Source: Polyangia bacterium (GTDB taxonomy: Bacteria; Myxococcota_A; Polyangia; Nannocystales; Nannocystaceae). Taken from it: a stretch of DNA of 64,000 bases. The stretch covers positions 175,225 to 239,224 of the forward strand of contig JAUIKS010000008.1 in NCBI GenBank assembly GCA_030430565.1. The letters run 5' to 3'. The translations under genes and the position numbers were made by a program. Positions 1,816 to 56,750 of the stretch are shown here, in pieces (the stretch's first letter is position 1; the number at the start of each line of letters is the position of its first letter). A model generated the notes under the pieces. That model did not search any database. It was given only the letters and a program-made list of their open reading frames with translations, and was not told the origin of the DNA.

Positions 1816-2517
1816 TCAGTCGCCGCCCGTGATCGCCTTTTGGTCCAGCTTGGCCTTCAGCGCCGCCAGCTCATCATCGAGCTCGTCCTTGGCGTCGAGG
1901 TTCGCGAACTTGGCGTCCAGCTCGGCCTCCGCGGCGCGCTCGTTCATCTCGCCCGAGTTGACCTCGTTGAGCGCCTCGATCGCCGCGATCTTGTCCTCGA
2001 TCGCGTTAATGCGCGCCCCCGCCTCGCCGCCGCTCGAGATCTCCTCCTCGAGGTTGCGCCCCTTCTTCGCGGCGCGCGCCTGCGCCATCAGGCTCCCGCG
2101 CCGCATGTTGAGGGACTTCAGCTTGGCCTTCGCCTCCTTCAGGCCGTCGCGCATGCTGTCGATCGTCTGCTTCTGCTGCGCCATCGCCTCCTCGAGCGAC
2201 TTGCGCTCCGAGGAGACCTCGCCCTTGCGCTGCAGCGCGGCGCGGGCGAGCGAGTCATCGCCGATCTTCACCGCCTGGGTAGCGCGCGCGTGCCAGTTCG
2301 CCTCGTCCTTCTGGATGCCCTCGAGCTTCCGCTCCATCACCTTGTAGTCGACCATCGCCTGCCGGAGGTCGCCCTCGGACTTCTTGATGTTGTCGGCCAG
2401 GTCGTCGAGCATCAGCGCGACCTCCTGCCCGGGATCGGACATCGCATCCACCGCGTCGTTGAGCGTCGATGAGATCGAGTTTCTGATCCGCGAAAACAGG
2501 CCTGGTTTCTTGCTCAT
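1816..2517 (-). CDS. pspA: PspA/IM30 (phage shock protein A / Vipp1 family) membrane-stress protein
   Basis: 233 aa, coiled-coil rich, N-terminus MSKKPGLFSRIRNSISSTLNDAVD... and overall pattern match PspA/IM30 family. Confidence 0.75.
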   Translation of the reverse strand: MSKKPGLFSRIRNSISSTLNDAVDAMSDPGQEVALMLDDLADNIKKSEGDLRQAMVDYKVMERKLEGIQKDEANWHARATQAVKIGDDSLARAALQRKGEVSSERKSLEEAMAQQKQTIDSMRDGLKEAKAKLKSLNMRRGSLMAQARAAKKGRNLEEEISSGGEAGARINAIEDKIAAIEALNEVNSGEMNERAAEAELDAKFANLDAKDELDDELAALKAKLDQKAITGGD

Positions 2518-2978
2518 TCTGGCTGGCTCCCCCGACCCGCCGCGTGCGCGGGGGCCGGCACGCGGAAGTGTACGTCACGGGTCTAGCCGTGTCTCGCCCC
2601 GCCCGCGCGACCGAAGGAGCGCGCGTCGAGTGCACGACGCCCGGCTCGCGTTGGCCGCGAGAGCCGACGGCGCGGGGCGCCCCCCCGCGCGCGCGCTGGC
2701 GACTTGACAAGCGCCGCGGCGAGACGATCTCGCCCGTCGCTGAGGCGCCCGCGAGCGCGCGAGCGCGAGCGCGCCGCGCCGTCGCAAGCACCATGACCAA
2801 AAAGACAGCTCGTGCGCGTCGCCGCGCCGCGCCGCGCTGTTCTGCGCCGCGGCGAGCCGCCCGCGCGCGGCAGCGCGCTGATCCGCGAGCGATCACGCGT
2901 CCGCGCTACACAAACAACCAGTCTCCATAGACATGTACATAAAAACCTGTCCGATGAGACGATGAGCGCGGTTCTCGG

Positions 2979-4187
2979 ATGACAAGCAAGAAGCACGGAA
3001 AGCCCCCTGTCCTGCTCGCGCACAAGTGGGCGACGAAGCACAACCCCGCCGGCTGGTGGATGAGCGAGAAGCTCGACGGCGTGCGCGCCTACTGGGACGG
3101 CAAGCGCTTCCTGTCGCGCCAGGGCAACGAGTACGTCGCGCCCGGCTGGTTCACGCGGCCGCTGCCGAGGCACCCGCTCGACGGCGAGCTGTGGATCGAC
3201 CGCAAGCAATTCCAGAAGGTCGTGGGCGTCGTCCGCCGGCAGAAGGCCGACGAGGACTGGAAGCGCGTCCGCTACCTCGTCTTCGACGCGCCCGCGCACG
3301 GCGGCGTCTTCGAGGATCGCGTCGAGCACCTCACCGACCTCATCAAGGGCATGAGCATCAAGCACGTGGTCCCCGTCGACCACGTCCGCTGCCGCGACCA
3401 CGCCCACCTCATCACCGAGTTCAACCGCGTCGAGGCGCTGGGCGGCGAGGGCCTCATGCTCCGCGAGCCGCGCTCGCTCTACGTCGCGGGCCGCTCCCGC
3501 AGCCTGCTCAAGGTCAAGCGCTTCCACGACGCCGAGGCCAAGGTGCTCGGCTACATCGACGGACAGGGGCGGCACGCTGGCAGAGTCGGCGCGCTCTCGG
3601 TCGTGACCCCAGGCGGCGTGCGCTTCGCCATCGGCTCGGGCCTCAAAGACGCGGATCGTGACGACCCGCCGAAGGTCGGCGCGATCGTGACGTACCGCTA
3701 CCAAGAGCTCACGGACGCCGGCATCCCGCGCTTCCCGACCTTCGTGCGCATCCGCGAGGACTTCGACTGGCCGACCAACGGCGGGAGCACCAGCCGCCCG
3801 GTGGCCTCGAGCGTTCCGCTGACCGCCGGAGCAGCTGCTGCGGGGACCAAGAAGGCCTCCAAGAAGGCCTCCAAGAAGACGTCAAAAAACGCCTCCAGCA
3901 AGACGTCGAAAAACGCCTCCAGCAAGACCGCCAAGGCGAGCGCGCCCACCACGAGCGCCAGCAGCAGCACCAGCACCAGCCAGACGCGCTACTTCGAAAA
4001 CGCCGGCTCGCCCGGGAAATTTTGGGAGGTCACCGCGCAGGGCGTCGCTATGGCCGTTCGCTACGGAACGCTCGGCACGCGCGGCAAGACCAAGATCAAG
4101 ACGTTTCGAGACGCCGCGCGCGCGACCGCGGAGGCCGAGCGCCTCATCGCCATTAAATTGAAAAAGGGCTTCGTAGAGAAGCCCTGA
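2979..4187 (+). CDS. Minimal ATP-dependent DNA ligase fused via Lys/Ser-rich tail to C-terminal WGR domain
   Basis: Motif I KLDGVR (KxDGxR), motif III LVFDA, motif IV EGLMLR, motif V LLKVK, then OB domain. Next a KKASKKASKKTSKNASSKTSKNASSKTAKA low-complexity tail, then GKFWEVTAQGVAMAVRYGTLGTRGKTKIKTF...AERLIAIKLKKGF (W-G-R signature). Confidence 0.8.
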   Translation: MTSKKHGKPPVLLAHKWATKHNPAGWWMSEKLDGVRAYWDGKRFLSRQGNEYVAPGWFTRPLPRHPLDGELWIDRKQFQKVVGVVRRQKADEDWKRVRYLVFDAPAHGGVFEDRVEHLTDLIKGMSIKHVVPVDHVRCRDHAHLITEFNRVEALGGEGLMLREPRSLYVAGRSRSLLKVKRFHDAEAKVLGYIDGQGRHAGRVGALSVVTPGGVRFAIGSGLKDADRDDPPKVGAIVTYRYQELTDAGIPRFPTFVRIREDFDWPTNGGSTSRPVASSVPLTAGAAAAGTKKASKKASKKTSKNASSKTSKNASSKTAKASAPTTSASSSTSTSQTRYFENAGSPGKFWEVTAQGVAMAVRYGTLGTRGKTKIKTFRDAARATAEAERLIAIKLKKGFVEKP

Positions 4188-4252: not shown

Positions 4253-4648
4253 CTAGCCGGCCTCCTCGATGCCGAGCTTGGCCTTGATGTCGTTGACGAA
4301 GGCCTCTTCCTTCTCGGTGACGCGGCCGTCGGCGTACGCGAGCTGGATCAGGTGAATCACGACCGCGTTGCGCTGCTTCTCGGACATCACCTGCTTCATC
4401 AGCGCGGTCGCCTCCGTGATCGCCTGCTCGCGCGCGGCGTCGTCCGGCAAGCGATTGTGCCACTGCGCTGACTCGATCAAGATGCCGCGAATCTCGTCCT
4501 CCGTGGCGTCAGGCCACCACTTGCTGAGGAGGTCACAGATCTTGTTAACCTCGTCCGCGCTCAGCCCCGCGTCGGTCGCGTGCGTGAACCGGAGATACAA
4601 CAGCCCCAGGGTACGGAGAGCTTTTTTTGTGTCGTCAGGGATCGCCAT
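4253..4648 (-). CDS. TerB-family (tellurite resistance TerB-like) protein
   Basis: 131 aa, helical; resembles TerB/DjlA-type domain (conserved acidic/aromatic pattern). Family assignment from memory only. Confidence 0.5.
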   Translation of the reverse strand: MAIPDDTKKALRTLGLLYLRFTHATDAGLSADEVNKICDLLSKWWPDATEDEIRGILIESAQWHNRLPDDAAREQAITEATALMKQVMSEKQRNAVVIHLIQLAYADGRVTEKEEAFVNDIKAKLGIEEAG

Positions 4649-5385
4649 GCGCTGCTCCTCGCTCGGATGGGGGCGCCCGTAAGCGGACGTCCTCGGAGCG
4701 GTGACGAATCATATCGCAGCGCCCGGCAGGACGCGACGCGCTCGCTCGCTGCGTGTACACGCGCGCTCGAGCGAGTCCGTGGGGCGCGGACAAACCGCTT
4801 CGCGAGCGCGCGCTCAACCAGCTCGCCGATCCTCCATCAGCTCCGCGCCAACGCGCTCATCAGCGCGAAATCGCGATTAACCGTAAAAACTGCGGTAGAC
4901 CGCCGGGACATGACCGCAAATTCAGCGACGCGCGACGACGCGGCGACGCGAATTCACGCGGAGGACCGCGAGAGCGCTGTGATAGGCTTCGCGGACGCGT
5001 TCGCCGAGGCTCTCGGTGCTCGCCCCGCCCACAACGCGGCGGTCGAGCTCGAGAGAGCCCGGGCTGATCCGCGCCCCCTCCCCCGTACGACCCCCAGCCA
5101 ACACAGCACGACTCTTGCCAGATCTTCCCACAAAGCCCGAGAATCCCAAATCGCAGCCCCACGACACCTGGTTCGACAGCCTGCGTCGCGAGTACGCCGA
5201 GATGAGCCGCGCGCATCACCGGCGACTGCGCGAAGAGCAGTCCTACGAGGGTGACGACTGGGGTGACCCGGACGAGGACGACTGGGGTCGTCAGAAGACC
5301 TGAACCTCGTCTGAAGCGCGCAGCGCCAGAACGCGCGAAGGGCCGGGAAACTCCCGGCCCTCGCTAATTCGAGCGCGCCTCAGCC

Positions 5386-7353
5386 TCAGCCGCGTCGACG
5401 TCGACGCCGGCGCGAGTGACCGACGCCGAGCAAGGTGAACAACGCCAGCGCGCCCCACGGGCCGCTCTGCGGGTTCGCGCGGCAGTCACAGCCGTCGTCG
5501 TCGAGCTGCCCAGCGGTCTCCGTCCCGGCGGGGTCGGTATCCGTCGCGCTCGCGGTGTCGGAGGCGCTCGCGCTCGCCGACGCGTCCGAGTCGCTGTCGC
5601 TGTCGGTCTCGCTGTCGCCGTCACCGTCTCCGTCGCCGTCTCCGTCGCCGTCTCCGTCGCCGTCTCCGTCACCGTCTCCGTCACCGTCTCCGTCACCGCA
5701 GTCGTAGTCCTCGGGACAGTTGAGCTCGTTGGGCTCCGTGCAGATCGCGTTCCCGGCGATGTCGATCGCGCAGTAGCGATACACGAGCTTGAAGGACTCC
5801 GGGATCGTGAACGGGAACACCCACATGTGCTCGCCGTACCAAATGCCGTCGAGCTGAATCCCAGCGTCGTTGATGTCGTCGAGGTCGACCGCGTACTCAA
5901 AGTAGACGCGCTGCCAGTCGTGCGCGTAGTTCACGGTCTTGTTGTCGTGGACGCGCGCGCGCAGGTCGATGGTGTCGCCGACCATCAGCATGTCGTCCGC
6001 GGTCATCACCTGGTAGTTCTGAATAAACGGCACCGCGGTGTCGGCCATCACGTCCTCGCCGAAGAACACGAAGTTCTCGAAGGCGTTGAGGCCGTCGCCG
6101 AGGACCGAGTCGATCTTGTTGTCGCCGTTGAGATCGCCGAGCTCGATGTCGAAGGTCCCGTCCGAGGGGACCTCGCCGAAGGGCAGCTCTCCAGCCGACG
6201 CGAACATCGTGCCCTCGTGCGTCAACAAGCGATCGCCGTCCGCCGCCGCCGAGGCCAGGAACACGTCAGGATCGGTGTCAGAGTCGTAGTCGGCGAACGC
6301 GAGGCCGTAGTCGAAGGTCGCTATGTTGTCGATCGGCTGCCACCACGTCGCGGTCTCGTCGAGGAAGCCGTTGTTGCCGTTGTTGATCAGCACGCGGTTT
6401 CGGTAGCCGCCCATGCCGCCGCCCTCGCCGTCCTGCAGCGAGACGAGATCGAGGAACTCGTCGCCGTCGAGGTCTAGCGCCGTGTACTTGACGCCGTACT
6501 CGTACTGCGGGAGCTGCCCGGGCGTGATGTCGGTGAAGGTCCCGTCGCCGTTGTTCTCGTAGAGCCGGCTGCCGTCGAGGCAGCGCCGGCAGGAGTTCAC
6601 GATGTCGAGGTCGTAGTCGTTGTCGATGTCGACCAGCTCGACGTCCCAGGACCACTTGAGGTTGATATCGGGCATGTTCCCGAGCGTGACGTCGGTGAAC
6701 ACGCCGGTCCCGTCGTTGAGCCAGAGCATCGTCCGGCCGCCCTCGGAGTCCTGCACGTCCACCGGGATCCCGCCCCACTCGGTCAAGACGAGATCGAGGT
6801 CGCCGTCGAGATCGACGTCGCCGAACTCCGCGTCGCCGATGCTGTGGTCCTCCTGCGGGAGGTGCGTGCCGCTCACCTCGGTGAGGTTGAACATGTTGTC
6901 GACGTTGTCCGCGTCGTAGATGAGCAGCCGGCTGCGGCTCGACCAGGTGGCGCCGATGAAGATGTCGAGGAAGCCGTCGCCGTTGACATCACGCGCCTTG
7001 ATCACGCGCCCGGTGTCGGCGATCGCGTTCGGGTCGTCCGGGATCGAGCCGAAGACGTCCACGCTGACGTCGGTGAAGGCGACCAGCGCGGGGTCCGGAT
7101 CCGCGTTGTTCAGGAAGGCCTGGTTCGGCAGCCCCGAGTCCGGGGTCCCCGCCTCGAGGCCGCCGCAGTTGGCGAACAGGATGTCGACCGCGCCGTCTCG
7201 GTTGAGGTCCATGAGCTCGACGTCGGTCGTCCAGAACTCGCCGATGTCCTCGAACTGCTGCGGGGTCGCCTTGACCCACGGCGCCGCGGCGGCCGTCGCC
7301 GGCAGGATCGAGACCACGAGCGCAGTGATGAACAAACTACTGAGACGACGCAT
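5386..7353 (-). CDS. Secreted FG-GAP/VCBS repeat beta-propeller protein with (GD)n linker and MYXO-CTERM sorting signal
   Basis: Signal peptide MRRLSSLFITALVVSILPATAAAAP. Repeated DxNxDGxxD calcium-binding FG-GAP motifs (DLNRDGAVDILFAN, DVNGDGFLDIFIG, DLDGDLDLVLT, DIDNDYDLDIVN). C-terminal (GD)12 then GCDC...hydrophobic...RRRRRRRG tail. Confidence 0.75.
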   Translation of the reverse strand: MRRLSSLFITALVVSILPATAAAAPWVKATPQQFEDIGEFWTTDVELMDLNRDGAVDILFANCGGLEAGTPDSGLPNQAFLNNADPDPALVAFTDVSVDVFGSIPDDPNAIADTGRVIKARDVNGDGFLDIFIGATWSSRSRLLIYDADNVDNMFNLTEVSGTHLPQEDHSIGDAEFGDVDLDGDLDLVLTEWGGIPVDVQDSEGGRTMLWLNDGTGVFTDVTLGNMPDINLKWSWDVELVDIDNDYDLDIVNSCRRCLDGSRLYENNGDGTFTDITPGQLPQYEYGVKYTALDLDGDEFLDLVSLQDGEGGGMGGYRNRVLINNGNNGFLDETATWWQPIDNIATFDYGLAFADYDSDTDPDVFLASAAADGDRLLTHEGTMFASAGELPFGEVPSDGTFDIELGDLNGDNKIDSVLGDGLNAFENFVFFGEDVMADTAVPFIQNYQVMTADDMLMVGDTIDLRARVHDNKTVNYAHDWQRVYFEYAVDLDDINDAGIQLDGIWYGEHMWVFPFTIPESFKLVYRYCAIDIAGNAICTEPNELNCPEDYDCGDGDGDGDGDGDGDGDGDGDGDGDGDGDSETDSDSDSDASASASASDTASATDTDPAGTETAGQLDDDGCDCRANPQSGPWGALALFTLLGVGHSRRRRRRRG

Positions 7354-18504: not shown

Positions 18505-18576
18505 GCTGGCGTAGCTCAACGGAAGAGCACCTGCTTTGTAACCAGGTGGTTGTGGGTTCGACTCCCACCGCCAGCT
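18505..18576 (+). tRNA. tRNA, anticodon TGT (Thr) by manual folding
   Basis: Acceptor GCTGGCG/CGCCAGC, D-arm GCTC-AACGGAA-GAGC, anticodon arm CCTGC-TTTGTAA-CCAGG (one C.C mismatch at 31:39), variable TGGTT, T-arm GTGGG-TTCGACT-CCCAC. No encoded CCA. Confidence 0.65.
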
Positions 18577-26460: not shown

Positions 26461-26544
26461 GCCTCAGACAGTATCAGGAAGCCGACGACGGCCGCCGCGT
26501 GATCTTGCCCTCGGGGACATGTCCAAATGAGGATGTGCTTCGTT

Positions 26545-35648: not shown

Positions 35649-35817
35649 TGCGGGCGACCTCCGGGCGAGCGTTCCGATCCAGCTCTATGTATAAAGGGGC
35701 GATGCTTGTTCGTACAAGCACCTCCGCCGCCACGACGCGAGCCTCGACCGCGCGTGTCGTGGTGCGTGTAGATGGAGGGGATCGGACGGCGTTCTCGACG
35801 CTCGCGCGAGGAGGATC

Positions 35818-37038
35818 ATGGAGCGGCTGAGCGCTGGGTCAGCCGCCCGCCTCGCGCTCGCGCGGGCGGGCCTCCTGCGCCCCGCGTGGACCGACCTGCC
35901 CGCGCGCGTGGGCTCCCGCGCCAGCGCCAGCTCGGTCCACGAGGCCGCGCTCGCGCACATCCGGCGCCCCGGCTACCTGCAGCTCGACACGGTGGCCGTC
36001 GCCGGCGCGCGCAGCCACGGGATCGTGCTCGCGTCGCGCCTCGAGGGTTTTCGTGCCAACGACGCCGAGGACCTGCTCGCGCCCGGATCCGAGCTGTTTG
36101 AGTACTGGGGCCACGAGGCCTCGTGGATGCCGATGGAGCTGTACCCGGCGTTCGCGTTTCGCCGCGAGGACTTCGCGGTCCACCCGTGGTGGGGTGACCT
36201 GCTGAAGGAACACCGCGAGACCACGCGGGCGATCGTCGCGCGAATCCGCGCCGAGGGCCCGCTGCGCTCGGCGGATCTCGAGGGCGCCTCGAAGGGCGGG
36301 TTCTGGAACCTCAAGCTGTCCAAAAAGCTCGTCTTGAGCCTGTGGTCGAGCGGCGAGCTGGCGATTCGCGAGCGCCGCGCGTTCCTGCGCACCTACGATC
36401 TGCGCGAGCGGGTGATCCCGAAGCGCGTCCGCGGTCGACCGCTCGCGCTGACCGACAGCCTCCGCGCGCTGCTGCTGCGGGCGCTCGACGGCCACGGCTG
36501 GGCGACGACCGGCACGCTCGCGGCGACCTGGCGGCTCCGCAACCTCCGCGCCGAGATCACGACGGCGCTCGAGCAGCTGCGCGAGGCCGACCAGGTCCGA
36601 CCGTGCACCCTCGAGACCGAGGGCGGCGAGCGGGTCCGCGGCTGGATCCGACCGCGCGATCTGGAGCTCGCGGCTCGCCTCCGGCGAGCCCGCCCGCGAC
36701 GCGATCGCGGCGTGCTGCTCTCCCCCTTCGACCCGGTGCTCTGGGATCGCAAGCGGGTCGCGCGGCTGTTCAATTTCCAGATGCTGCTCGAGATCTTCAA
36801 GCCAAAGGCTCAGCGCGTCTACGGCTACTACTGCATGCCCGTGCTCGCGGGCGATCGGCTCATCGCGCGCGTCGACCTCAAGGCCGACCGCAAACGCGGA
36901 TCGCTCGAGCTGCGCGCGCTCCACTACGAGCCGCCGGGGCGCGGGCGTCGGGGCGCCCCGGAGCAGCGCGCCGCGGTCGAGCACGCGCTCGCGCGCTACG
37001 CCGCGAGCGTCGAGCTGCGCCCGCCTCCGCGAGCCTGA
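35818..37038 (+). CDS. Winged-helix DUF1006 / YcaQ-AlkZ-like protein (putative interstrand-crosslink DNA glycosylase family)
   Basis: 406 aa. Overall pattern (N-terminal wH repeats, conserved LFNFQMLLEIFKP..YGYY block) recalled as YcaQ/AlkZ family. No HMM run. Confidence 0.5.
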   Translation: MERLSAGSAARLALARAGLLRPAWTDLPARVGSRASASSVHEAALAHIRRPGYLQLDTVAVAGARSHGIVLASRLEGFRANDAEDLLAPGSELFEYWGHEASWMPMELYPAFAFRREDFAVHPWWGDLLKEHRETTRAIVARIRAEGPLRSADLEGASKGGFWNLKLSKKLVLSLWSSGELAIRERRAFLRTYDLRERVIPKRVRGRPLALTDSLRALLLRALDGHGWATTGTLAATWRLRNLRAEITTALEQLREADQVRPCTLETEGGERVRGWIRPRDLELAARLRRARPRRDRGVLLSPFDPVLWDRKRVARLFNFQMLLEIFKPKAQRVYGYYCMPVLAGDRLIARVDLKADRKRGSLELRALHYEPPGRGRRGAPEQRAAVEHALARYAASVELRPPPRA

Positions 37039-45572: not shown

Positions 45573-47369
45573 TCAGAAGAGCACGATCCGCACGTCGCGG
45601 ACGCACGAGAGCCCGCGCAGCAGCTCGCGCGCGAGGTAGCGAAACAGCGTGTCGAGACAGATCTCGCGCGAGAAGCCGCCGTTGCCCGTGGCCAGCAGCG
45701 GCAGCGCCAGGGTCTGCACGTTCAGCGTGTCGGCGTGATAGATGCAGCTGCCCAGGATCTCGCAGATCAGGTCGCGGCTCGGGCCCGGCCCCCCGCCGAA
45801 GCCGCGGCCACGCAGCGTGATCCCGTGGAACACGAAGCGCGCGCTCAACCCCCCCGCCGAGGTCACGACCGCTCGACCCGCGCGCACCGGGATGTAGCGC
45901 TGCGCCTGGTCGTAAACGGCCTCGCCCGCGGCCTGACGGATCGCTCGCGAGACGCCGCTGCGCATGGTCAAGAACTGATCGTCAGAGCTGACGAGCGCCT
46001 CGACGTCCTGATCGACCAGGTCACCGCAGACGATCGTCAGCGTGCGCGCGTCCGGGAAGTCGTAGCGGTCGAGGATCCGCCCGCGCGCCCTGCCGGTGCC
46101 GTCCGCGACCTCGAGGTAGTGCGCGCGCCGAGAGCGGTAGCGCTCGAGGTGGGGCCGCAGCGCGACGTCCTCGACCGCGTCCCAGGGCGAGATTGCGTCG
46201 ACGACCGGATCGATGACGGCGAGCACCTCGGCGAAGGACGAGAAGCGCTCGGAGGGGGACTTCGCCAGGCAGCGCTCGACAATCTCGCTCGTCCGCGCGC
46301 TGATCGCCGGGTTGAGCGAGCGCGGCGGCGTGAGCGGCTCGGTCTTGTGCTTGTGCAGGATCGCGAACCAATTCCCGCCGTCGAAGGCGGGCCGCCCGGT
46401 CAGCGCGTGGTAGAAGGTCGCGCCGAAGCTGTAGATGTCCGCGCGCGTGTCGACGCGGCGTGGATCCTCAGCTTGCTCAGGGGCCATGTACCACGGGCTC
46501 CCGAGCACCTGCCCGACCAGCACCGCCTCGTCGATCTCGCTCGGCCCGCGCGCCAGCCCAAAGTCGACCACGCGCGCCGCCCCTTCGTCGTCGACGAAGA
46601 TGTTCGAGGGCTTGAGGTCGCGGTGGATGATGCCCTCCTGCGCCGCCGCCAACATCCCGCGCGCCGTGTCTCGCATCCACCGGATCACGCGCTCCTCGTC
46701 GATCCCCACGTCGCCTGACTCGCGCTCTTCCGCCCGCATCACGCGCGCGAGATCAAGGCCGTCGATCCACTCCATCACGAGCACGGGCCCGCGCTCGGGG
46801 AGGATGTCGAAGTCGTGGATCTCGACCACGTGCGGCGAGTCGATCTTCGCCAAGATCCGCGCCTCTTGCAGGAAGCGACCCCGCGGGGCGCCCGGCAGCA
46901 GCACCTTGATCGCTACCTGCTTCTCGAGCGTTCGGTGCCGCGCCCGGTACACCACCCCCATCCCCCCGCGCCCGACCTCCTCCAGCACCTCGTAGCGCGC
47001 GCTCACGTCTCCGTCGCCCAGCACGAAGCCCTGCAGATCGTCGCTTGGTGACGGCCGCGTGCTGTGCGTCGCGCCCTCGCGCGAGGGCAGCGTCTCCGCG
47101 CCCTGGGCCCACAACGTCTCCGCGTGCGACGCCCGCTCAGTCGCGTGCTCGCTCCGCTGCGTCTTGCCGCGATCGTGCAGGGTCGTCTCCAGCTCCATCG
47201 CCGGAGGCGGTTCCGCGCCCTCACCCGCCGCGCTCGGGTCCCTGCGCGACGCCGTCATCGCATCCTCCACACGGGCAGCATCCCCCACCCCTTCGTGCGC
47301 AGCAAGCGTCCGCGCGCGGAAATTCGACCCCCGCCCACCGCCGCGACGCTCAGCGAAGGGCCGAAGCAC
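45573..47369 (-). CDS. Ser/Thr protein kinase fused to C-terminal macro-like (ADP-ribose-binding-type) domain
   Basis: Kinase motifs (GRGGMGVVYRARH, AIKVLL, HRDLKPSNIFV, DFGLAR, APE). C-terminal about 190 aa LTIVCGDLVDQDVEALVSSDD...RAIRQAAGEAVYDQAQRY...GRAVVTSAGGLSARFVFHGITL follows macro-domain spacing but lacks canonical NAAN/GGGV. Confidence 0.7.
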   Translation of the reverse strand: MLRPFAERRGGGRGSNFRARTLAAHEGVGDAARVEDAMTASRRDPSAAGEGAEPPPAMELETTLHDRGKTQRSEHATERASHAETLWAQGAETLPSREGATHSTRPSPSDDLQGFVLGDGDVSARYEVLEEVGRGGMGVVYRARHRTLEKQVAIKVLLPGAPRGRFLQEARILAKIDSPHVVEIHDFDILPERGPVLVMEWIDGLDLARVMRAEERESGDVGIDEERVIRWMRDTARGMLAAAQEGIIHRDLKPSNIFVDDEGAARVVDFGLARGPSEIDEAVLVGQVLGSPWYMAPEQAEDPRRVDTRADIYSFGATFYHALTGRPAFDGGNWFAILHKHKTEPLTPPRSLNPAISARTSEIVERCLAKSPSERFSSFAEVLAVIDPVVDAISPWDAVEDVALRPHLERYRSRRAHYLEVADGTGRARGRILDRYDFPDARTLTIVCGDLVDQDVEALVSSDDQFLTMRSGVSRAIRQAAGEAVYDQAQRYIPVRAGRAVVTSAGGLSARFVFHGITLRGRGFGGGPGPSRDLICEILGSCIYHADTLNVQTLALPLLATGNGGFSREICLDTLFRYLARELLRGLSCVRDVRIVLF

Positions 47370-47529
47370 GCTGAATACGCGCCGCGGAGCGCTCGCGCGC
47401 CTCTCTATAGGAAGACCACGTGCTGGTCCAGCTCAGCGAACTGCGGGACTTGGCTGGCGGCGGAAGTCCTTGCCGCGCGCGAGCGAGCTGCGGCCCCCGA
47501 CCTGATAGGGGCGTGGCCCCGTAGTGTTC

Positions 47530-50500
47530 TTACATGTCCTCGTAGCCCGCTTTCACGATGTGCAAGGCCCACTCGGTGTCAATCCAGCGGGTCGACTTGT
47601 GCGGTGTCCCGTCGAGGTAGCGGTGGCGATGCACCCGCTCTTGGTCGAGTACCCCGCCAGTCCGCGCGACATCATCTCGGGCCGCGAGCACCCAACCGAG
47701 ATCTGTTGTCGACACCGAACGCTCGGCGAATCCTCCGGTCCCACCATCGACCCGAAGTCCGCCCTTCGCAGCGCCTCCGATGATCCGCAATCGCGTCGAG
47801 CCCTGGGCGATCCATGAACCGGGAGGGTACCGGTCGAGGACACGCTTCACGAGCGCCACGGCTTGCTCGCGCCAGCGACGAGCCAGTGTCCGCGAAGCGC
47901 CGCGTCCCTTGCCGAGCGCTCTCCACGTTGCGAAGTCGACCTCCGGGATCTTCCACGCCGAATCGCGCCAGCGCCCAACCCCGGCGTATCGCCAGCCAGA
48001 CGCGTGCCGGGTCATGACGAACGCCGTCTCCGAGGGGCGACGGTTGGGTACGGGGAGTTCGACCGCGTCAGGCGCGGTCAGCGGTCCTTTGCTCTCCACG
48101 AGTAGGAACAGGTGCCCATCCACACGTGACCACGGACCGCGGGGGGGCTCGGAGAGCTTGAACCTCGCCACCAGGTCCTCGTTGCTCAGGAACTCGCCAA
48201 CGAAGGGCGCGAGCTGCTCGGGACGAACCACGTCGACGACTCGCGCGAGGACGGTCGTCTCCGCTGTGACTGGAAGGTCAGGTGCATCGGGGTTGTCCGA
48301 GCGAAGCTCAAAGCCGCCCTTGGCCTTCACGAGCCGCTTGAGGTGGTGGGCGAAGCCCGTGTGGGTGTCGCCCCGCGCAACCAGGACAACGCGCCCGACG
48401 ACCGCGGCGAGCGGAAGGCCGCGCCCCCACTCGAAGACAACCCAATCGCCGTCGCAGATCGGCTTGGATCCACCGCACATCGAGTCTCCATAGGCGCGGG
48501 TCGCAAATCGATTCTCGGCGGTTTCAACGGGGAGGCGCACGTAGTCCGCTTCAGCCTCAACTTCGACCGCCGGCCTCGAGATTGAACCGGCGGCCACCTC
48601 CAAGCTTGGGTACGCGACGAACCTGCCCCTTGGAACAAGGTCGATGACAGCAGCGAGAGGCTCGACCCACCAGCCGTCGGGCGCCCGCCGAAACTGAACG
48701 CGATACCGAGTGCCGGTTGCTCCCGCGCTTGGTCCGAACCACTGTCGGAGCAGATCCGGTAGCTTGTTGTCACGCGCGCCAACCGGCCGCGCCACATTGA
48801 CCGCGACTTTGACGAAGCGAAACAGCCACATCGAGCCGTCCTCGAGCCGTACCTCGGTATCGCCGTGCGGGAGTCGCTCGCGGCCCTTCGTCGGCAAAAA
48901 CAGGATTGGGCCCTTGGAGTTGTGCGAGACGTTGCAGACGAAGGAACTCTCGCCTGCGATCGAGTCTTCGTCGACTCGGGCGCGACGTTGATAGCGTGCG
49001 AGACGAGCGTCGACGAGCTGCCACGTCATCTCGACGAGCGCGTCGCGAGCCGCGGGGTCTTCCGGCGGCGGCAGCCGGAATCGCAGCGCGTCGTCCTGTA
49101 TGGAGAACCACGGCCCCTTCGTCCACGCCTGGATCGGGTTCTTTCGCCAGTAGCGACGCCACACAGCGGGCTCCGGAGCGCGCGGATCGGGTAGAGCCTT
49201 GACCCCCTTGAGATCCTCGAACAAGACAGGGTTGCGAAGCAGGTAGGCGTGGCTGCGACGCGCGAGCTGCTCGAGCGGCATCCCGTCGAACAGGGCCTCG
49301 GACGTAAGGAGCACTTCGAGCACGACCATCTTGAAGCACTTCGTCAGGCTCTCGCTGGCCTCGACGGCGTGCAGCCAGTCCTCGCCGTGTACGTAGGCTT
49401 TGCGCTCGGCTTCGCCGAGGTCGTTCTCGTCGCCAACGAACTCGAACCAGCTTTTATAGCGCTTTCGAATCGCGCGGATACTCTGTCCGAGTCGAACCAG
49501 TTCTCCGGGTGTTGGGCGAGTTCCACGTTCATCACGGAGTTCGCGGTAGACCTGCACCGCCGGGATCGCGTGGGAGGCCGGCGTGAGTTTCTTGAGCAGC
49601 TCGATGGCCTCGAGCTTGATCTCCACGCTGCATCCGGCCGGGAGTTCCAGCGTCTCCGGTCGCTCGAGGAATTGGGACAGAGGCGGCGCAGACGGTGAGA
49701 GCGTGAGCAGCGTGCGCACGCGGCCGAGGAACACCTTGTGATTGCCGACAAAATCGATGACCTCGAGGACATCTTTGCCCTCCGAAGTTCGCAGGCCGCG
49801 CCCGAGTTGCTGGAGAAACACCAGCGGCGACTCTGTTGGACGCAGCATGACGACCCGGTCGATCTGTGGCACGTCGATGCCCTCGTTGAACAGGTCGACC
49901 GCCGCGATGGCCTCGAGCTGACCGGAGTCGAGCTGCTCGAGGGCGTCACCACGGGACGCCGACGTTTCGCCCGAATGAACCGCGACGACTCGAACGCCCT
50001 TGCCCTTGAGCCATTTCGCAACGTAGTCCGCATGGCCGATCGACACGCAGAACACGAGCGTGCGAGTCGCGGGCCGCTCACACCACGCTTCGTACAGGCG
50101 CGACATCCGGGCCTCGGTCTCCACGAGTCGAGCCAGGTGCTCGATCGTGAACTGACGCCACGGCATGGGTTTGTACTCGGTTGTATCCGCGAGCCCTCGG
50201 TAGTGAAACGGCACAAGCAAACCACGCTGGATGCCCTCGCCAAGGTCGGCGCGAAAGGCAACGTGGTCGTCGAAGATCCCGCCGATATCGCCCTGGTCGG
50301 CGCGCTCCGGTGTGGCCGTAAGGCCGAGCAGGAACTTCGGATCGAGATGCGCGAGGAGCCGCCGGTAGGTCGGTGCGGCCGCGTGGTGCACTTCGTCTAC
50401 GATGACGTAGTCAAAGCTTGTCGCCGAGAGTCGGGCGAGCTGCTCGGGTCGCGTGAGCTTCTGAACCGACGCGAATACGAACTCGGATGACAGGTCGTCA

Positions 50501-51816
50501 GACGCCCCGTGAAAGAAGCCAAAAGTCGCGCTGGGAAACACGCGGCGAAACGTAGCGCTCGCCTGAATGAGCAGCTCACGGCGATGGACGAGGAACAGCA
50601 CACGAGTGCGAAGCCCCCGTCGTTCGCAAAACGCTTTGACATCGAATGCGGCCAGAAACGTCTTGCCGAGACCCGTCGCCAGGACCACCAAGGCGCGCTC
50701 GCGGCCATCGTCGCGGCTGCGCGCGAGAGCCTCGAGCGCGTCATTCTGGACACCGCGCGGAGCGACCAGCTCGTCAGTGATACCCTCTGCTTCCCCGATC
50801 GGCAGCTGCGCGTTGTCGGCACTCCGTCGGGCGTATTCCTGAAGCCATACCTCATCAAGGGTTCTCGCTCTCGCCCAAAGCTCGTCGAATGCTCCGACGA
50901 TGGCCGCGTACGCAGCGGGGTCGCGCGCGGCCTCTGTTCGCAGGTTCCACTCGACCCCAACGCCCAGGGCTGAGTCGGACCAGTTTGAGCTCCCGACGAA
51001 CGCGACAGCAAAATCGGGACCCTCAAACCGCCATGACTTTGGGTGAAACGCTCGATTATTTTGCAGCCTGGTCTCAACAACGCGTACCGAGAACGATCCG
51101 GGGCCCTCAGCTTGTGCGAGCTGCGCCCAGTCGAGTAGCCGGCGAAGCGCCTGAACCTGGGTGATGGCCAAGTAATCGCCAGTAACGACGCGAATCGTTG
51201 CACCACGTTCGAGCGCTTCATCAATCTGCACAGAGAGCGTATCTACCCCGGTGTGTTGGACGAAAGCCGCGACAATAGAGATCTGATCCGCGCGCTCAAA
51301 CAAATGGCGGACCGGACGACGAAACGGGTCGTCGGGACCCCCCACAACAAGTGGAGCCGCACGCGCAGCTCGGTTCGCCCACTCGTGCTCGGTGGTGGGC
51401 CGAGGGATGAATCCTGCCTGTTTGTAGTTCCCGTACCTGGGAATGACGAAACGAACGCCGCCCCGTGGGTCATCAACATCTCCCGTGTAGCGGGGAATCA
51501 CATGAATATGGAGATGGTCGACGGTCTGGCCAGCGGCATGTCCGGAGTTGAAGCCGACGTTGTATCCGTCTGGCTTGTGCGATGCGTCGAGCTGTCGTTT
51601 GACCGTCTCGACGAGTTCGAATATCGCGGTTTGCTCCTCGCGGCTGGCGTCGAACCAGGTCGCCACCACCCGATGGGGGATCACGAGCGTGTGCCCGTCA
51701 CTAACGGGGTAGGCGTCGCGAATGGCAAAGGCCAGCTCGTTCGAGGCAACCCACTCGCTGTTCGAAATCTCTGTAAACGGAGAACTCACGACGAATCGAC
51801 CTCGAGCCTTACACAC
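47530..51816 (-). CDS. 1428-aa fusion: HIT hydrolase - PLD (HKD) nuclease - SF2/ResIII helicase - DUF3427-like region - B3-like DNA-binding domain - LexA/UmuD-type S24 peptidase - unknown C-terminal domain
   Basis: HIT HLHIHVIP. PLD FHPKSWRF...GSSNWS. Helicase I ATGLGKT, II VDEVHH, III LTATPER, VI LQQLGRGLR. B3-like FVCNVSHNSKGPILFLPTKGRERLP..GSMWLFRF. S24 site VAAG(S) at aa 1074-1077, GDSM at 1110-1113, DGDWVVF, HLKRL (Ser1112/Lys1160). Confidence 0.85.
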   Translation of the reverse strand: MCKARGRFVVSSPFTEISNSEWVASNELAFAIRDAYPVSDGHTLVIPHRVVATWFDASREEQTAIFELVETVKRQLDASHKPDGYNVGFNSGHAAGQTVDHLHIHVIPRYTGDVDDPRGGVRFVIPRYGNYKQAGFIPRPTTEHEWANRAARAAPLVVGGPDDPFRRPVRHLFERADQISIVAAFVQHTGVDTLSVQIDEALERGATIRVVTGDYLAITQVQALRRLLDWAQLAQAEGPGSFSVRVVETRLQNNRAFHPKSWRFEGPDFAVAFVGSSNWSDSALGVGVEWNLRTEAARDPAAYAAIVGAFDELWARARTLDEVWLQEYARRSADNAQLPIGEAEGITDELVAPRGVQNDALEALARSRDDGRERALVVLATGLGKTFLAAFDVKAFCERRGLRTRVLFLVHRRELLIQASATFRRVFPSATFGFFHGASDDLSSEFVFASVQKLTRPEQLARLSATSFDYVIVDEVHHAAAPTYRRLLAHLDPKFLLGLTATPERADQGDIGGIFDDHVAFRADLGEGIQRGLLVPFHYRGLADTTEYKPMPWRQFTIEHLARLVETEARMSRLYEAWCERPATRTLVFCVSIGHADYVAKWLKGKGVRVVAVHSGETSASRGDALEQLDSGQLEAIAAVDLFNEGIDVPQIDRVVMLRPTESPLVFLQQLGRGLRTSEGKDVLEVIDFVGNHKVFLGRVRTLLTLSPSAPPLSQFLERPETLELPAGCSVEIKLEAIELLKKLTPASHAIPAVQVYRELRDERGTRPTPGELVRLGQSIRAIRKRYKSWFEFVGDENDLGEAERKAYVHGEDWLHAVEASESLTKCFKMVVLEVLLTSEALFDGMPLEQLARRSHAYLLRNPVLFEDLKGVKALPDPRAPEPAVWRRYWRKNPIQAWTKGPWFSIQDDALRFRLPPPEDPAARDALVEMTWQLVDARLARYQRRARVDEDSIAGESSFVCNVSHNSKGPILFLPTKGRERLPHGDTEVRLEDGSMWLFRFVKVAVNVARPVGARDNKLPDLLRQWFGPSAGATGTRYRVQFRRAPDGWWVEPLAAVIDLVPRGRFVAYPSLEVAAGSISRPAVEVEAEADYVRLPVETAENRFATRAYGDSMCGGSKPICDGDWVVFEWGRGLPLAAVVGRVVLVARGDTHTGFAHHLKRLVKAKGGFELRSDNPDAPDLPVTAETTVLARVVDVVRPEQLAPFVGEFLSNEDLVARFKLSEPPRGPWSRVDGHLFLLVESKGPLTAPDAVELPVPNRRPSETAFVMTRHASGWRYAGVGRWRDSAWKIPEVDFATWRALGKGRGASRTLARRWREQAVALVKRVLDRYPPGSWIAQGSTRLRIIGGAAKGGLRVDGGTGGFAERSVSTTDLGWVLAARDDVARTGGVLDQERVHRHRYLDGTPHKSTRWIDTEWALHIVKAGYEDM

Positions 51817-53021: not shown

Positions 53022-56000
53022 CTACGTCGCGCGGTAGCGTGTCCCGCGGGCGTTGCCACGGCAGGTCACCAGACCTTCTGTGCCCAACCGGGACAAGCTC
53101 GCTCGCAGCTGCAAGGGTGTACCTCCAGTCAGCTCACGCAACTCCGCCGCGGACGCGGGATGGTCAAAGGAGCGCACCGCCTCGAGCACCGCGCGATCGT
53201 ATTCCTGACGACCCTGCGCGGTCCGGGTGTTGATCGCCCGGGCCCGCGGTGATGTCCGCGTCGTGCCGCGCTTCGTCGTCTTCGCGCCCTTCTTCGCTGG
53301 CACAACACAAGCGACAGCCGGACGAGACGCGGCCACGTCTTCATCGCGCTCGACATCACCGTCGGACTCCAGCAGCGCCATCAGCTCCTCGGGCGAGAAG
53401 CGCGTCACGCCGCCGTCGCTCGCCAGCAGGCCCTCGGCCAGCGCCCGCTTCTGCTCGTGCAGCTCGAGCACCGCCTGCTCGATCGTCCCCTGCGACACGA
53501 AGCGGACGACCGTCACGGGCTTGTCCTGACCGATCCGGTGCGCGCGGTCGCTGGCCTGATCCTCGACGGCGGGGTTCCACCACGGGTCGAGGTGGAGCAC
53601 GTAGTCGGCGGCCGTCAGGTTGAGCCCGGTCCCGCCCGCCTTGAGCGAGATGAGGAACAGCGGCGCGTCTCCGGTCTGCCAGCGCTCGACCAGCTCGGCA
53701 CGCCGCTTCGCGGGGGTGGAGCCGTCGAGGTAGAGGTGCTCGAGCGTGGTCGCGTCCAGGCGCTCGCGGACCAGCGCGAGCAGGCCGGTGAACTGGCTGA
53801 ACACCAGCGCCCGGTGGCCCTCGGCGTGCAGCTCCGTGACGAGTTCCATGAAGGACTCGAGCTTGGACGAGGTCGCGCGCGAGCCCTCCTCCATGAGCTT
53901 GGGGTGGCACGCGAGCTGGCGAAGCCGCGTGAGCGCGGCCAGGATCGCGAAGCGGGCGTCTGGATCGTCTTCCCCAGGCCCATCTCGTCGGCCAGGCACG
54001 CGCCGGCGCCCCACTCCGCCAGGCGCATCAGCCACTCGAAGCCCTCACGCTGGTAGTCCCGCAGCGTCCCGTTGAACGCGGAGGGGACCCGCGGCTCGAT
54101 CTCCCGCCGCTATGCGCTCGAGCAACCTCGAGGTCGCGTCGTCGATGTCGAGCTGGGCCGCGTCCTCGACGAGTTCGGCGACGACGTTGACGGCCGCCGC
54201 TCCGCTCACGAGCTTGTCGCGCACGGGCGCGAGCGCGGCGTCGCTGTCGGCGAGTCGCCGCGCGAGCGCGCGCTCGAGCTCGACGAAGCGCTCGGGGCCC
54301 ACGCGGACGAAGCGACGACCCCCGCGCGCGGCCGCGAGCAGCTCACGCAGCGGGATGCGCTCGCCGTCGACCGTGACCTCGCCCTCGACCTCGAACCACT
54401 TCGGGCCCCGCCGCAGCTTCACGCGCAGGTCTCTCGGCGACGCTCGCTTCTTGAGCACGCGCCACGCCTTGCGCCCGGTCCACTCGATCGCGAGCGGGGG
54501 CTCCCCCTCCTCGGCGCGGCGCTGGAGCTCCGTGAGCAGCGCGAGCGCGGGCTGGAGCTCTTCGACGCGGTACTGGTGCTCGCGCTCCGTTCGGAAGCGC
54601 TCGAGCTCGAGCTCGCGCTCGAGCGCTTCGACGGCGCGGCGCTCTTGCTCGAGATCGCGCCGGGCGTGCACACGCTCGCCATCGAGCGCCCCGTACACGC
54701 TCGTGGGTCCCTGTCCCGGCGGCCATACCGAGCCGCCCTCACCGAGCGGCGCGCTCACGAGGGACACGACGAGTGATTCGTCGTCGGGCGTGAGACGCAC
54801 GACGAGCGCGGCGCCGCGTGAGACGCTTCGGCCCTGAAGCGCCGGCGGCAGCTCGAGCCCGACCGCGGGCTGGAGCTGTTGAAGCAGCGGGAGCAGCGAG
54901 GCGTAGGCGTCCTCCGGGAGACCGGCGCGATGCGTCTCGATCAACTCACGCAGCCCGTCGACGAGCGGCGTGCGCTCACAGAACACGCACACGCCGGTTT
55001 TGGGCTCGAACACGAACAACACCGCCCGCGCGTGATCCTCGGCGAGTTCGTGCTCTCGCAACGCGCCGAGGCGAAGCTCGAGATACGCGAGCTCCTCTCG
55101 CTGCGTCACGACGAGCGTCGGCGAAACCTCGCGCAGGCGTATGCGTTTGCTCGGATCGTCCGCCCGGAAGACGAGCTCGTGCTTGCACAACGCCCGCAGC
55201 GCGCTGAGCTGCGTACGCGCCGAGACCGAGCGTCGAGTCCAGCGGTAGTCATGCTGGATCTCGAGGGCGTCGGCGATCTCGCGGTCGAGCGGCGATGGCT
55301 CGGCGCTCTGCCACTGGATGTCATTCGGGCTGCACTTGCTCCCCGGGCTCCAACCGCCGCGCTTCTTTTGTTTCTGCACCGCAGGCCGAACCGTCAGCGC
55401 GCCGTCGCGCAGGTCCACGCGCCAGGTGACTCTCCGGGGCGCCGTGCTCGCGACAACACCGACGCTGTGCCGTCGCACCAGGCGATCGAGCGCCTCGACC
55501 GTCCGTGACCAGCCAAAACCCCCGGCGATCTCGAGCAGCGCTTCGTGGAGCCCGTGATCTGGATCGAAGAGCGCGTCGAGCGTCCATTCAACCAAGGAAC
55601 GCGCGTGGGCACGTTCGTGTCGCTTACGGTGGAAATCAAAAGACAGCGGCCGCGCGCGGTAGTCTCGCAGCGACAGGCTGACGGTCTTGCCCAGCTCGGA
55701 GTGCAGCACCGTGAGCGTCCGCTCTTCGCGGTGGAGCTCGACGATGATCTCGGCGACCAGCACAGGCTCCAGCGCGCGGGGTTGCGACCGGATGGCGTCG
55801 CGGAGCTCCGTCAGCGCGCGCGCGAGCAGCTCGAGCGGACGCGCAGGCAGCGGAGTAGACCAGAGCCCCATTCGCTTGCGATCGAGCGCGGTCCGCCGCG
55901 CCTCGGTGTACAGCTGCTTGCGCGCGGCCTCACGGGCGCGGTCACCAACGCTGCTCCAAAGGACATCCATCATGGGAGGCGGCGTGAGCGGTGGCACCAA

Positions 56001-56483
56001 CAGCTGGATATAGGTCGGCGTACCGACGTGATCGAAAAGGCCCGGCGGGATCCCGCCCCAAGCCGCGAGCTCGGGCACCGGCGCGTCGAGCAGATCCGCG
56101 ACGCCGTGTCGCTTCGCCCAGGCGCGCAGCGGCTTGGGCTCGCGCGGCGGCGAAGGAACATCGATCCCGACGTAGAGCTGGCGGGGCGACCAGCGGACGC
56201 GCTGGTCATCCGTGTCGGCGACGGAGAGCGCGTCGACGAGTTCCCGAATCAGGATGAAGCGCATCTCTTCGGGTAGCTCCTCGTCGAGATACCGGTGAAA
56301 CACGGGGCTCGAGAGCAGCTCTCCCATCGTCTGAATGTTCAGGAGTCGGGCGAAGTCACGGACGAACTCGACGGTGTCCCAATCACCGTCGATCTCGTCG
56401 ACGGCGATCGAGTTCAACATCCGCGCCCGCGCTGGTACTCGGAGCCAGCGCTTTAACCCTTGGACCGTCGTCGGGGCTCCCAT
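53022..56483 (-). pseudogene. SNF2-family helicase, disrupted (frameshift before DYQ motif; internal deletion of ATPase lobe 1 after Walker A)
   Basis: An 812-aa N-terminal ORF (54045..56483) ends in a stop. +1 frame reads [40 protein letters not shown] (SNF2 Q/Walker A). Then a frame change gives [22 protein letters not shown], joined directly to helicase-C (LDGSTP, WWNPAVEDQASDRAHRIGQ). About 250 aa incl. DExH missing. Confidence 0.55.
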
Positions 56484-56750
56484 GGTGGCAGTATAGCGCG
56501 AATTCGCGCATTGCTGCCCTGCAACTGAATTGGCACAGACCGCCGCTGGTGGTCAGCAGTACGCGCGCGGAGACCGGTCGCGTCAAGGATCGGATTGTGG
56601 TGCCGTTGTTGCTCGCGCTAGCCAAGGGCGTCCCTCCGGACTCGTCCCCGTAGCGTCTTCACTAGCTCAATCGCCTGCGACCTGCCCGTTCGGCTGTCGA
56701 GGCCAAGAGCCACGCCCGCGTCTCGTGGCCTGCTACGCTCGCCACGCGGC

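Follow-up and report, generated by a model that had tools for sequence, protein, structure and literature searches.

In this study, we analyzed a 64,000-nucleotide stretch of a Polyangia bacterium genome (contig JAUIKS010000008.1 of assembly GCA_030430565.1, positions 175,225 to 239,224; hereafter the window) and focused on the open reading frame (ORF) at positions 2979 to 4187, which we read as encoding a cytoplasmic ATP-dependent DNA ligase with a Lig E-type two-domain core, a flexible linker of net positive charge, and a minimal C-terminal WGR domain. To this reading, taken together with the targeting mechanism and repair role proposed below, we assign a probability of about 0.6. The domain identities, intact catalytic motifs, lack of a leader, disordered linker, and WGR fold are established by the results below. 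The original prediction, made from the letters and a list of ORFs, had described a minimal ATP-dependent ligase followed by a basic low-complexity linker and a WGR domain, and a Pfam search confirmed this architecture, with PF01068, PF14743, and PF05406 all above their curated cutoffs in a single polypeptide of 402 amino acids (aa); the motifs, Lys-rich stretch, and WGR string that it had quoted (the last at aa 348-376) could all be located in the ORF. The parts of the gene are as follows.

2979-4187 (+), ORF of the leaderless Lig E-type ligase, linker, and WGR domain; 402 aa plus stop
3003-3533 (+), nucleotidyltransferase (adenylation) domain, aa 9-185, matched by PF01068 and PRK09125 and carrying motifs I, III, IV, and V; Pfam DNA_ligase_A_M (PF01068) at aa 18-180, E value 1.4e-9
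Motif I, KLDGVR, aa 31-36, with the predicted adenylated Lys31 at nucleotides (nt) 3069-3071
Motif III, LVFDA, aa 100-104
Motif IV, EGLMLR, aa 157-162
Motif V, LLKVK, aa 176-180
3534-3764 (+), OB-fold domain of the Lig E/phage type, aa 186-262, with the motif VI region RFPTFVRIRED; Pfam DNA_ligase_OB_2 (PF14743) at aa 195-259, E value 5.4e-28
3765-3980 (+), disordered low-complexity linker, aa 263-334, 72 aa with 12 Lys or Arg and 1 Asp or Glu
3849-3941 (+), Lys-rich core of the linker, KKASKKASKKTSKNASSKTSKNASSKTAKAS, aa 291-321
3847-3928 (+), DNA tandem repeat encoding the Lys-rich part of the linker, found by Tandem Repeats Finder
3847-3897 (+), 12-nt repeat unit CCAAGAAGGCCT in 4.2 copies
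3867-3928 (+), 24-nt repeat unit in 2.6 copies, 92% matches, score 96
3981-4184 (+), minimal WGR domain, aa 335-402, 68 aa, with four or five beta-strands and one helix; Pfam WGR (PF05406) at aa 345-401, E value 5.6e-11, 42.8 bits against a cutoff of 22

The ATG is the first possible start after the upstream stop, and no earlier in-frame start is available. The GC content at third codon positions (GC3) of the plus frame is 0.91, so that the overlapping antisense ORFs are best regarded as high-GC artifacts. The AlphaFold model of the whole protein has a mean predicted local distance difference test score (pLDDT) of 85. A look-up by exact sequence gave no record of the protein itself; the closest relatives of the ligase, at 86 to 88% identity, come from a Myxococcales metagenome-assembled genome (MAG), followed by proteins from Nannocystaceae MAGs at ∼55% identity.

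The motifs and OB domain place the predicted protein among the ATP-dependent DNA ligases of the nucleotidyltransferase superfamily. In an alignment of 109 family members, K31, D33, R36, D103, E157, R162, K178, K180, and R251 are invariant, and R259 of the OB domain is kept in 101. The NCBIfam equivalog model PRK09125 matches with 342 bits against a cutoff of 200 and covers profile positions 23 to 282 of 283. The matching Lig E enzymes in the Protein Data Bank (PDB) are 8U6X from Neisseria gonorrhoeae (E value, 4e-66), 4D05 from Psychromonas, and 6GDR from Alteromonas mediterranea (E values up to 2.5e-54), with ∼40 to 44% identity across both domains. The core is modeled with pLDDT above 90, and the best superposition of the model is onto the DNA-bound Ame-Lig structure 6GDR (TM score of 0.91 normalized to the target; root mean square deviation of 2.0). 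The original prediction had allowed that the protein might turn out to be a routine, characterized LigC/LigD accessory form; by profile and domain type it is not one, as the two models for ligases of nonhomologous end joining (NHEJ) fall far below their cutoffs (TIGR02779, 49.9 versus 227.75; TIGR02776, 37.8 versus 373.2) and the OB domain is PF14743. Among deposited phages, 441 records match the core only, and none covers ≥80% of the protein, so that the WGR fusion is not seen there.

Canonical Lig E (8U6X, 4D05, and 6GDR) shares this two-domain core, but it carries a signal peptide, is periplasmic, lacks appended domains, and works on DNA outside the cell, whereas the window protein is leaderless and has a 72-aa linker and a 68-aa WGR domain in addition. 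The N terminus of the window protein reads MTSKKHGKPPVLLAHKW; over its first 40 aa the 9-residue Kyte-Doolittle average reaches a maximum of 0.74, and no hydrophobic segment is present. The PRK09125 match starts at profile position 23, so that the leader part of that model is missing here, and residue 11 of the window protein aligns with residue 26 of the N. gonorrhoeae construct 8U6X. On the basis of the missing upstream start, the hydropathy, and the profile and structure alignments, the window ligase lacks a signal peptide and is presumably cytoplasmic, unlike canonical Lig E. A leaderless Myxococcales cluster (cluster “c”) that lies inside Lig E and groups with fungal sequences has been described (Sci Rep 2021, PMC8455567).

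The linker is Ser/Ala/Thr-rich apart from its charged residues and has a net charge of +11; residues 277 to 331 have pLDDT below 50 and are thus predicted to be disordered. Its Lys-rich core holds 10 Lys in 31 aa, the remainder being Ser, Ala, Thr, and Asn, with no Pro at all. The first description of the sequence had likened this segment to a histone H1 tail and had placed the underlying repeat at about 3840 to 3950; the repeat was recovered at 3847 to 3928 and the segment is Lys-rich and basic, but the likeness to H1 is a loose one; H1-like tethering tails are long, strongly Lys-rich, and often Ala/Pro-Lys in composition. The linker evolves quickly: in the 86% identical relative P0001 it has 20 aa fewer and its repeats follow another pattern, and across 119 relatives it ranges from 22 to 277 aa with a median net charge of +2, many being of mixed charge. 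Strong basic charge in the linker thus marks the small clade of the window protein and does not characterize the family.

As for the WGR domain, its assignment is solid and holds by Pfam profile, profile search, and fold search, as the original prediction had it. A phmmer search matches 2RA8, an uncharacterized Bacteroides fragilis protein, at an E value of 5e-10, and the profile of the family's WGR domains reaches that of PARP3 (2EOC; E value, 3.8e-5). Modeled alone, the domain has a pLDDT of 92.6, and Foldseek aligned it with 2RA8 (TM score, 0.89), with the PARP3 WGR domain 2EOC (0.73), and with PARP2 WGR domains on DNA breaks (0.58 to 0.76). In the profile alignment, the family core rYGRiGtkGQ...EKTkkGY (consensus YG[RK]IGxxGQ...EKTxKGY) aligns with RWGRVGEVGQ...EKTKNNW of PARP2/3. 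Position 362 is Tyr, Phe, or Trp in 107 of the 109 relatives, position 364 is Arg or Lys in 105, and position 370 is Gln in 75; K393 and K396 are nearly invariant, and Y362, G363, and K374 are also conserved family-wide. The motif of the window protein reads R-Y-G-T-L-G (Tyr362-Gly363-Thr364), so that it retains the aromatic residue and the Gly but not the Arg, and position 370 is Lys. In PARP2, W151, R153, and Q159 contact the break, as do K179 and K183, and the substitution R153A abolishes stable PARP2-DNA complexes (PMC6294510); we tentatively take K179 and K183 to be the counterparts of the family's conserved C-terminal lysines. These correspondences suggest the sensing of breaks, somewhat more weakly for the window copy than for the family.

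The original prediction had implied that this fusion might be rare, which does not hold, since it is both common and already catalogued. A protein search with the window ligase gave 7,881 significant matches, and in the best 120, whose architecture was read, precomputed Pfam annotations place ligase, OB_2, and WGR domains together in 116, while BLAST with the window's WGR domain as query detects one in 119; the named sources of these homologs are Myxococcota and Planctomycetota. We also scanned one genome per species of the Genome Taxonomy Database (GTDB) and took the best 80 loci of at least 600 matches, which span Planctomycetota, Myxococcota, Verrucomicrobiota, and Candidatus Obscuribacterales, with isolates including Chondromyces apiculatus, Labilithrix luteola, and Gemmata. 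An N-terminal finger domain, described below, is present in 78 of these 80 and a detectable WGR domain in at least 64. According to a ligase review, the largest bacterial NT-OB_2 cluster stems from delta-proteobacteria and Planctomycetia, and more than two-thirds of its members have a WGR domain (Williamson & Leiros, NAR 2020, PMC7470946). The NT-OB_2-WGR fusion is thus catalogued and routine in these phyla, where the genes are annotated simply as “DNA ligase.” This cluster, which overlaps cluster “c” of PMC8455567, agrees with the window protein in the PF01068 and PF14743 core, the C-terminal WGR domain, the phyla, and the lack of a leader. The window protein departs from the NT-OB_2-WGR cluster in that its clade lacks the N-terminal finger and its own copy has Thr in place of the motif Arg and an unusually basic, repeat-encoded linker.

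This finger is part of an extra 72 to 95 N-terminal residues found in nearly all relatives (P0007 to P0120), within which a domain of ∼65 aa carries the signature G-S-x4-Y-x-L-x-N-x-GG-x-Y-S-C-[ST]-C-P-A-W-x2-Q-...-C-K-H, that is, CxCx14CxH, the SWIM zinc-finger pattern. The Pfam SWIM family was the sole one to recur on it, with subthreshold matches in 15 of 20 members (best E value, 0.005), and a structure-database search for solved relatives of the finger gave chance-level matches only. No such module is mentioned in the portions available of the two ligase papers (PMC7470946 and PMC8455567). In the window protein, as in the clade nearest to it (P0001 and P0004 to P0006), the sequence starts directly at the core, and a tblastn search of the window with three N-terminal fingers recovered no remnant near the gene; the best match (E value, 0.06; positions 55906 to 56088) runs antisense to the ORF at that place and was rejected. 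The window copy is a reduced variant of the family, with the SWIM-like finger absent and the motif Arg replaced by Thr. Other relatives have gained domains, including an N-terminal BRCT domain (P0080 and P0099), an N-terminal WGR domain (P0015), and up to four WGR copies (P0003).

A subset of the relatives is found beside type XIII retrons. In 11 of 85 loci the ligase adjoins a gene for the reverse transcriptase (RT) RT_XIII (PADLOC E value, ∼1e-147), and SWIM_XIII was also detected in 7 of these 11 (∼1e-129). These 11 loci (L013, L039, L050, L053, L054, L055, L056, L059, L062, L063, and L084) belong mostly to Kofleriaceae, Haliangiales, and other deltaproteobacterial MAGs, with one Verrucomicrobiota genome (L013); ligases of the family also adjoin such retrons in L087 to L089 and L130. 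As a rule, SWIM_XIII is followed on the same strand by RT, then by a small WGR protein that stands alone, and finally by the ligase; two loci are convergent. One example is locus L055.

248-2242, SWIM_XIII
2554-3849, RT
3920-4093, stand-alone WGR protein
4655-5680, finger and core of the ligase

In the metagenomic locus L130, whose RT is a distant one, the ligase comes first, before a WGR-like ORF of 1,400 aa, SWIM_XIII, and RT. Type XIII retrons (Mx162, Mx65, Sa163, and Ne144) have been described with a SWIM protein and WGR-like/HEAT accessory genes, and no ligase was mentioned (Mestre et al. 2020); their accessory proteins thus share the SWIM and WGR domain types with the ligase family. In the reverse test, on 80 metagenomic type XIII RT loci, pieces of the ligase occurred only beside RTs sharing ≥70% identity with the Kofleriaceae type and in one distant case, and of the 35 loci flanked on either side by 2 kb or more, just 1 contained a ligase. 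A tblastn search of the window with the RT and SWIM_XIII proteins found no homolog of either at an E value of ≤0.01. The link between ligase and retron is real but lineage-restricted, being confined to one RT sub-lineage apart from the one distant case, and it has no direct bearing on the window gene, near which there is no retron.

The immediate neighbors of the window ligase had been pointed out in the original prediction as stress genes, and both are present. They and a conserved element upstream of the gene are as follows.

1816-2517 (-), PspA_IM30, by Pfam
2907-2942 (+), conserved upstream element TACAcAAAcAA...CTCcAtaGACATGTaCATAA, 36 nt, 38 to 72 nt before the ATG
4253-4648 (-), TerB, by Pfam

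Both flanking genes lie on the opposite strand and so are not cotranscribed with the ligase, and their synteny is one of clade level, which removes the functional weight that had been placed on them. A block of a 560-aa membrane protein, PspA, ligase, and TerB is found again in two Nannocystaceae-like genomes with ligases at ∼55% identity, whereas in the 80 GTDB genome loci and L005 the ligase has neither PspA nor TerB as a neighbor. The arrangement thus appears to be block synteny inherited in one clade rather than a partnership shared by the family. On the minus strand, a terminator-like hairpin and its T-run (4165-4185) fall within the last 20 nt of the ligase ORF, where they could end transcription of the convergent TerB gene. 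When ORFs of the first 85 loci and of the window's first 12 kb were clustered all against all, no conserved partner gene appeared in more than 11 loci, the top clusters being the ligase itself and its alternative-frame ORFs. PADLOC gave no match for the window ligase or for P0007.

The upstream element is conserved in the window and in the loci L001 and L003 as TACAcAAAcAA...GACATGTaCATAA, yet the three ligases are just ∼55% identical; as TACAnAAAnA...GACATGTNCATA it lies at 7918-7952 in L001 and at 5707-5741 in L003. Among 165 loci, the exact core GACATGTNCATA occurs solely upstream of the ligase in L001 to L004. Within the window, the core is found three times at no more than one mismatch, compared with 0.08 copies expected. 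At 26516 and 28091, where the copies carry one mismatch, the extended motif is missing, and for this reason no regulon is claimed. No sigma-70-like promoter was found upstream of the ligase. We regard the element as a candidate promoter or operator.

A mechanism can be proposed that would join the parts of the protein. Lys31 would be adenylated by ATP, and the core, which has a very small DNA-binding surface, would be recruited to DNA through electrostatic contacts, without sequence preference, made by the disordered Lys-rich linker. The WGR domain would then hold the enzyme at the discontinuity in the manner of PARP2, in which the basic disordered region would scan DNA and the WGR domain lock on the break, after which the core would transfer AMP to the 5′-phosphate and seal the nick. 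The most likely physiological role would be the cytoplasmic repair of single-strand breaks or cohesive ends. Human DNA ligase III-alpha (PDB entry 3L2P) has a PARP-like zinc finger fused to the ligase that acts as a nick sensor. It and the rotifer and fungal Lig E enzymes with poly(ADP-ribose)-binding PBZ fingers are likewise ligases with a module borrowed from the PARP toolkit, but the type of module (zinc finger or PBZ versus WGR) and its position differ, and the comparison is one of functional analogy only, except for the core of the rotifer enzyme AvLigE. That enzyme has a Lig E-type core with PBZ fingers, is induced by radiation, and contributes to break ligation (PMC10665377). The analogies with ligase III and PBZ-bearing Lig E, with the BRCT-bearing relatives pointing the same way, would support a role in repair. 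For PARP2, the disordered N terminus has been proposed to give non-specific DNA scanning, and Lig E cores are described as sealing nicks through a minimal DNA-binding surface without a latch or DNA-binding domain (PMC6294510 and PMC6144786, respectively). The window protein resembles PARP2 and PARP3 in its homologous WGR fold, in the family core motif, and in the basic disordered segment beside the WGR domain. It differs in that its output is a ligase and not an ADP-ribosyltransferase, and no allosteric activation is implied for it. From PARP2 it would be reasonable to infer, as the original prediction did, a “self-contained break-sensing ligase,” and from the comparisons as a whole we likewise infer that the linker may bind DNA, that the WGR domain may prefer breaks, and that the enzyme may act in repair.

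Several observations weigh against this reading. The residues of the window protein equivalent to PARP2 R153 and Q159 are Thr364 and Lys370; its WGR domain, at ∼68 aa compared with ∼115 to 125 aa in PARPs, is about half-size and stops before the segment with Tyr201, the 5′-phosphate reader of PARP2; the closest solved relative of the domain is the uncharacterized 2RA8 and not a PARP; and bacterial WGR domains have elsewhere been interpreted as modules that bind RNA or that serve transcription factors in DNA binding. Nor is the basic linker shared by the whole family, with the median charge at +2 and many linkers of mixed charge. In our literature search, WGR-bearing ligases turned up in bioinformatic mention only and in no biochemical or genetic work, with the ligase in a Myxococcus xanthus UV/LexA paper appearing as a reagent only, and DNA-damage regulation was not among the results for the window gene. 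In the main rival explanation, the tail is a generic DNA tether: the WGR domain and the Lys-rich linker would raise overall affinity for DNA, making up for the DNA-binding domain or latch that the ligase lacks, and would show no specificity for breaks. The loss of the motif Arg at T364, against Arg or Lys in 105 of 109 relatives, a minimal WGR domain without the Tyr201 region, a linker of 12 basic residues to 1 acidic, the minimal DNA-binding surface of Lig E cores (PMC6144786), and the description of bacterial WGR as a general DNA-binding domain of MolR-like factors would all suit such a tether. The family-wide conservation of Y362, G363, K374, K393, and K396, however, argues for a specific binding surface over bulk charge, and charge alone cannot be the selected function of the family because the linker is not basic in most relatives. 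We consider a non-specific tether unlikely, although the Arg-to-Thr change makes it the alternative to be taken most seriously.

The other explanations are less probable still. A part in work with type XIII retrons, with the WGR and SWIM domains docking on multicopy single-stranded DNA (msDNA) or accessory proteins and the ligase acting on reverse-transcribed DNA or forming part of the effector output of the retron, would fit the 11 of 85 loci with RT_XIII, the 7 with SWIM_XIII, the stand-alone WGR protein that usually lies between RT and ligase, the three separate gene orders (including those of Verrucomicrobiota L013 and of L130 with its distant RT), and the known accessory genes of this type, which encode SWIM and WGR-like/HEAT proteins (Mestre et al. 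2020). It is made very improbable for the family by the 74 of 85 loci with no retron near the ligase, by the single ligase among 35 well-flanked RT loci, by the dominance of one RT sub-lineage, and by the window itself, which has no RT or SWIM_XIII homolog and whose protein has no SWIM-like finger. A version in which the SWIM-Lig E-WGR ligases are coupled to type XIII retrons of the classical myxobacterial Mx162/Sa163/Ne144 kind, with their SWIM and WGR modules recognizing msDNA or the retron complex, and the window gene is a detached, SWIM-less descendant serving a retron elsewhere in the genome also seems improbable. Equally doubtful, in our view, is a ligase of Ku-dependent end joining, a functional analog of LigD or LigC, as the accessory ATP-dependent ligase of a soil-type bacterium with a large genome might be and as the ability of the PARP2 WGR domain to bridge two DNA ends (PMC6294510) would allow; the scores on TIGR02779 and TIGR02776 and the PF14743 OB domain, which is not of the LigB/C/D type, speak against it, as do a Pfam scan of 40 window ORFs, which found no Ku or LigD domain in any, and the clustering of ORFs from 85 loci and the window's first 12 kb, which gave no such conserved neighbor. 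A stress module with PspA and TerB that couples envelope or tellurite-type stress to DNA repair could explain why the block is kept in two other genomes despite ligases just ∼55% identical, but with PspA divergent and TerB convergent on the opposite strand, and with neither gene flanking the ligase in the 80 GTDB loci or L005, it is highly improbable. We give the least credence to a canonical periplasmic Lig E that acts on extracellular DNA in competence or biofilms: the top sequence and structure matches are Lig E enzymes, but the protein has no signal peptide, its NCBIfam match begins only at profile position 23, canonical Lig E has no WGR appendage, and the leaderless Myxococcales cluster is already recognized as distinct from it (PMC8455567).

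Elsewhere in the window, a 1,428-aa ORF (47530-51816, minus strand) joins HIT, PLD-like nuclease, ResIII/SNF2 helicase, Helicase_C, and LexA-like Peptidase_S24 domains in an unusual fusion; it lies in a patch of lower GC content (0.61 to 0.65 versus ∼0.70) and is possibly horizontally acquired or defense related. At 45573-47432 (minus strand) is a Ser/Thr protein kinase with a C-terminal Macro domain, of the ADP-ribose-binding or -hydrolyzing kind, which may be relevant to whether ADP-ribose signaling exists beside the use of WGR. Besides the ligase, a single clear DNA-repair gene was found in the window, one that encodes an AlkZ-like DNA glycosylase (35695-37038, plus strand; PF06224, E value, 1.8e-57), of a family annotated for alkylation/crosslink repair. 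A Helicase_C ORF (53022-54044, minus strand) immediately follows an ORF of 835 aa (54045-56552, minus strand) that Pfam does not match, and the two may be a split or diverged helicase. A single tRNA gene (18505-18576, plus strand), in a GC dip to 0.62 at 18 to 20 kb, is the sole Rfam match in the window.

Bacteria are usually viewed as relying on the NAD-dependent ligase LigA, with ATP-dependent ligases as accessories. Our findings indicate that a very widespread cytoplasmic ligase family has taken up a break-binding domain of the PARPs. The window copy, with no finger, Thr in place of the motif Arg, and a basic linker encoded by a repeat, could be used as a natural deletion and point mutant for dissecting the contributions of the modules, a use of modest value. 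The more novel thread is the adjacency of the ligase to type XIII retrons and the SWIM and WGR modules that the two have in common, which lies outside the window and in one lineage. If the WGR domain does target nicks, these enzymes could provide compact self-targeting ligases for biotechnology, they would be a bacterial counterpart of the PARP-like nick sensor of ligase III, and this would be a first function for the abundant WGR domains of bacteria.

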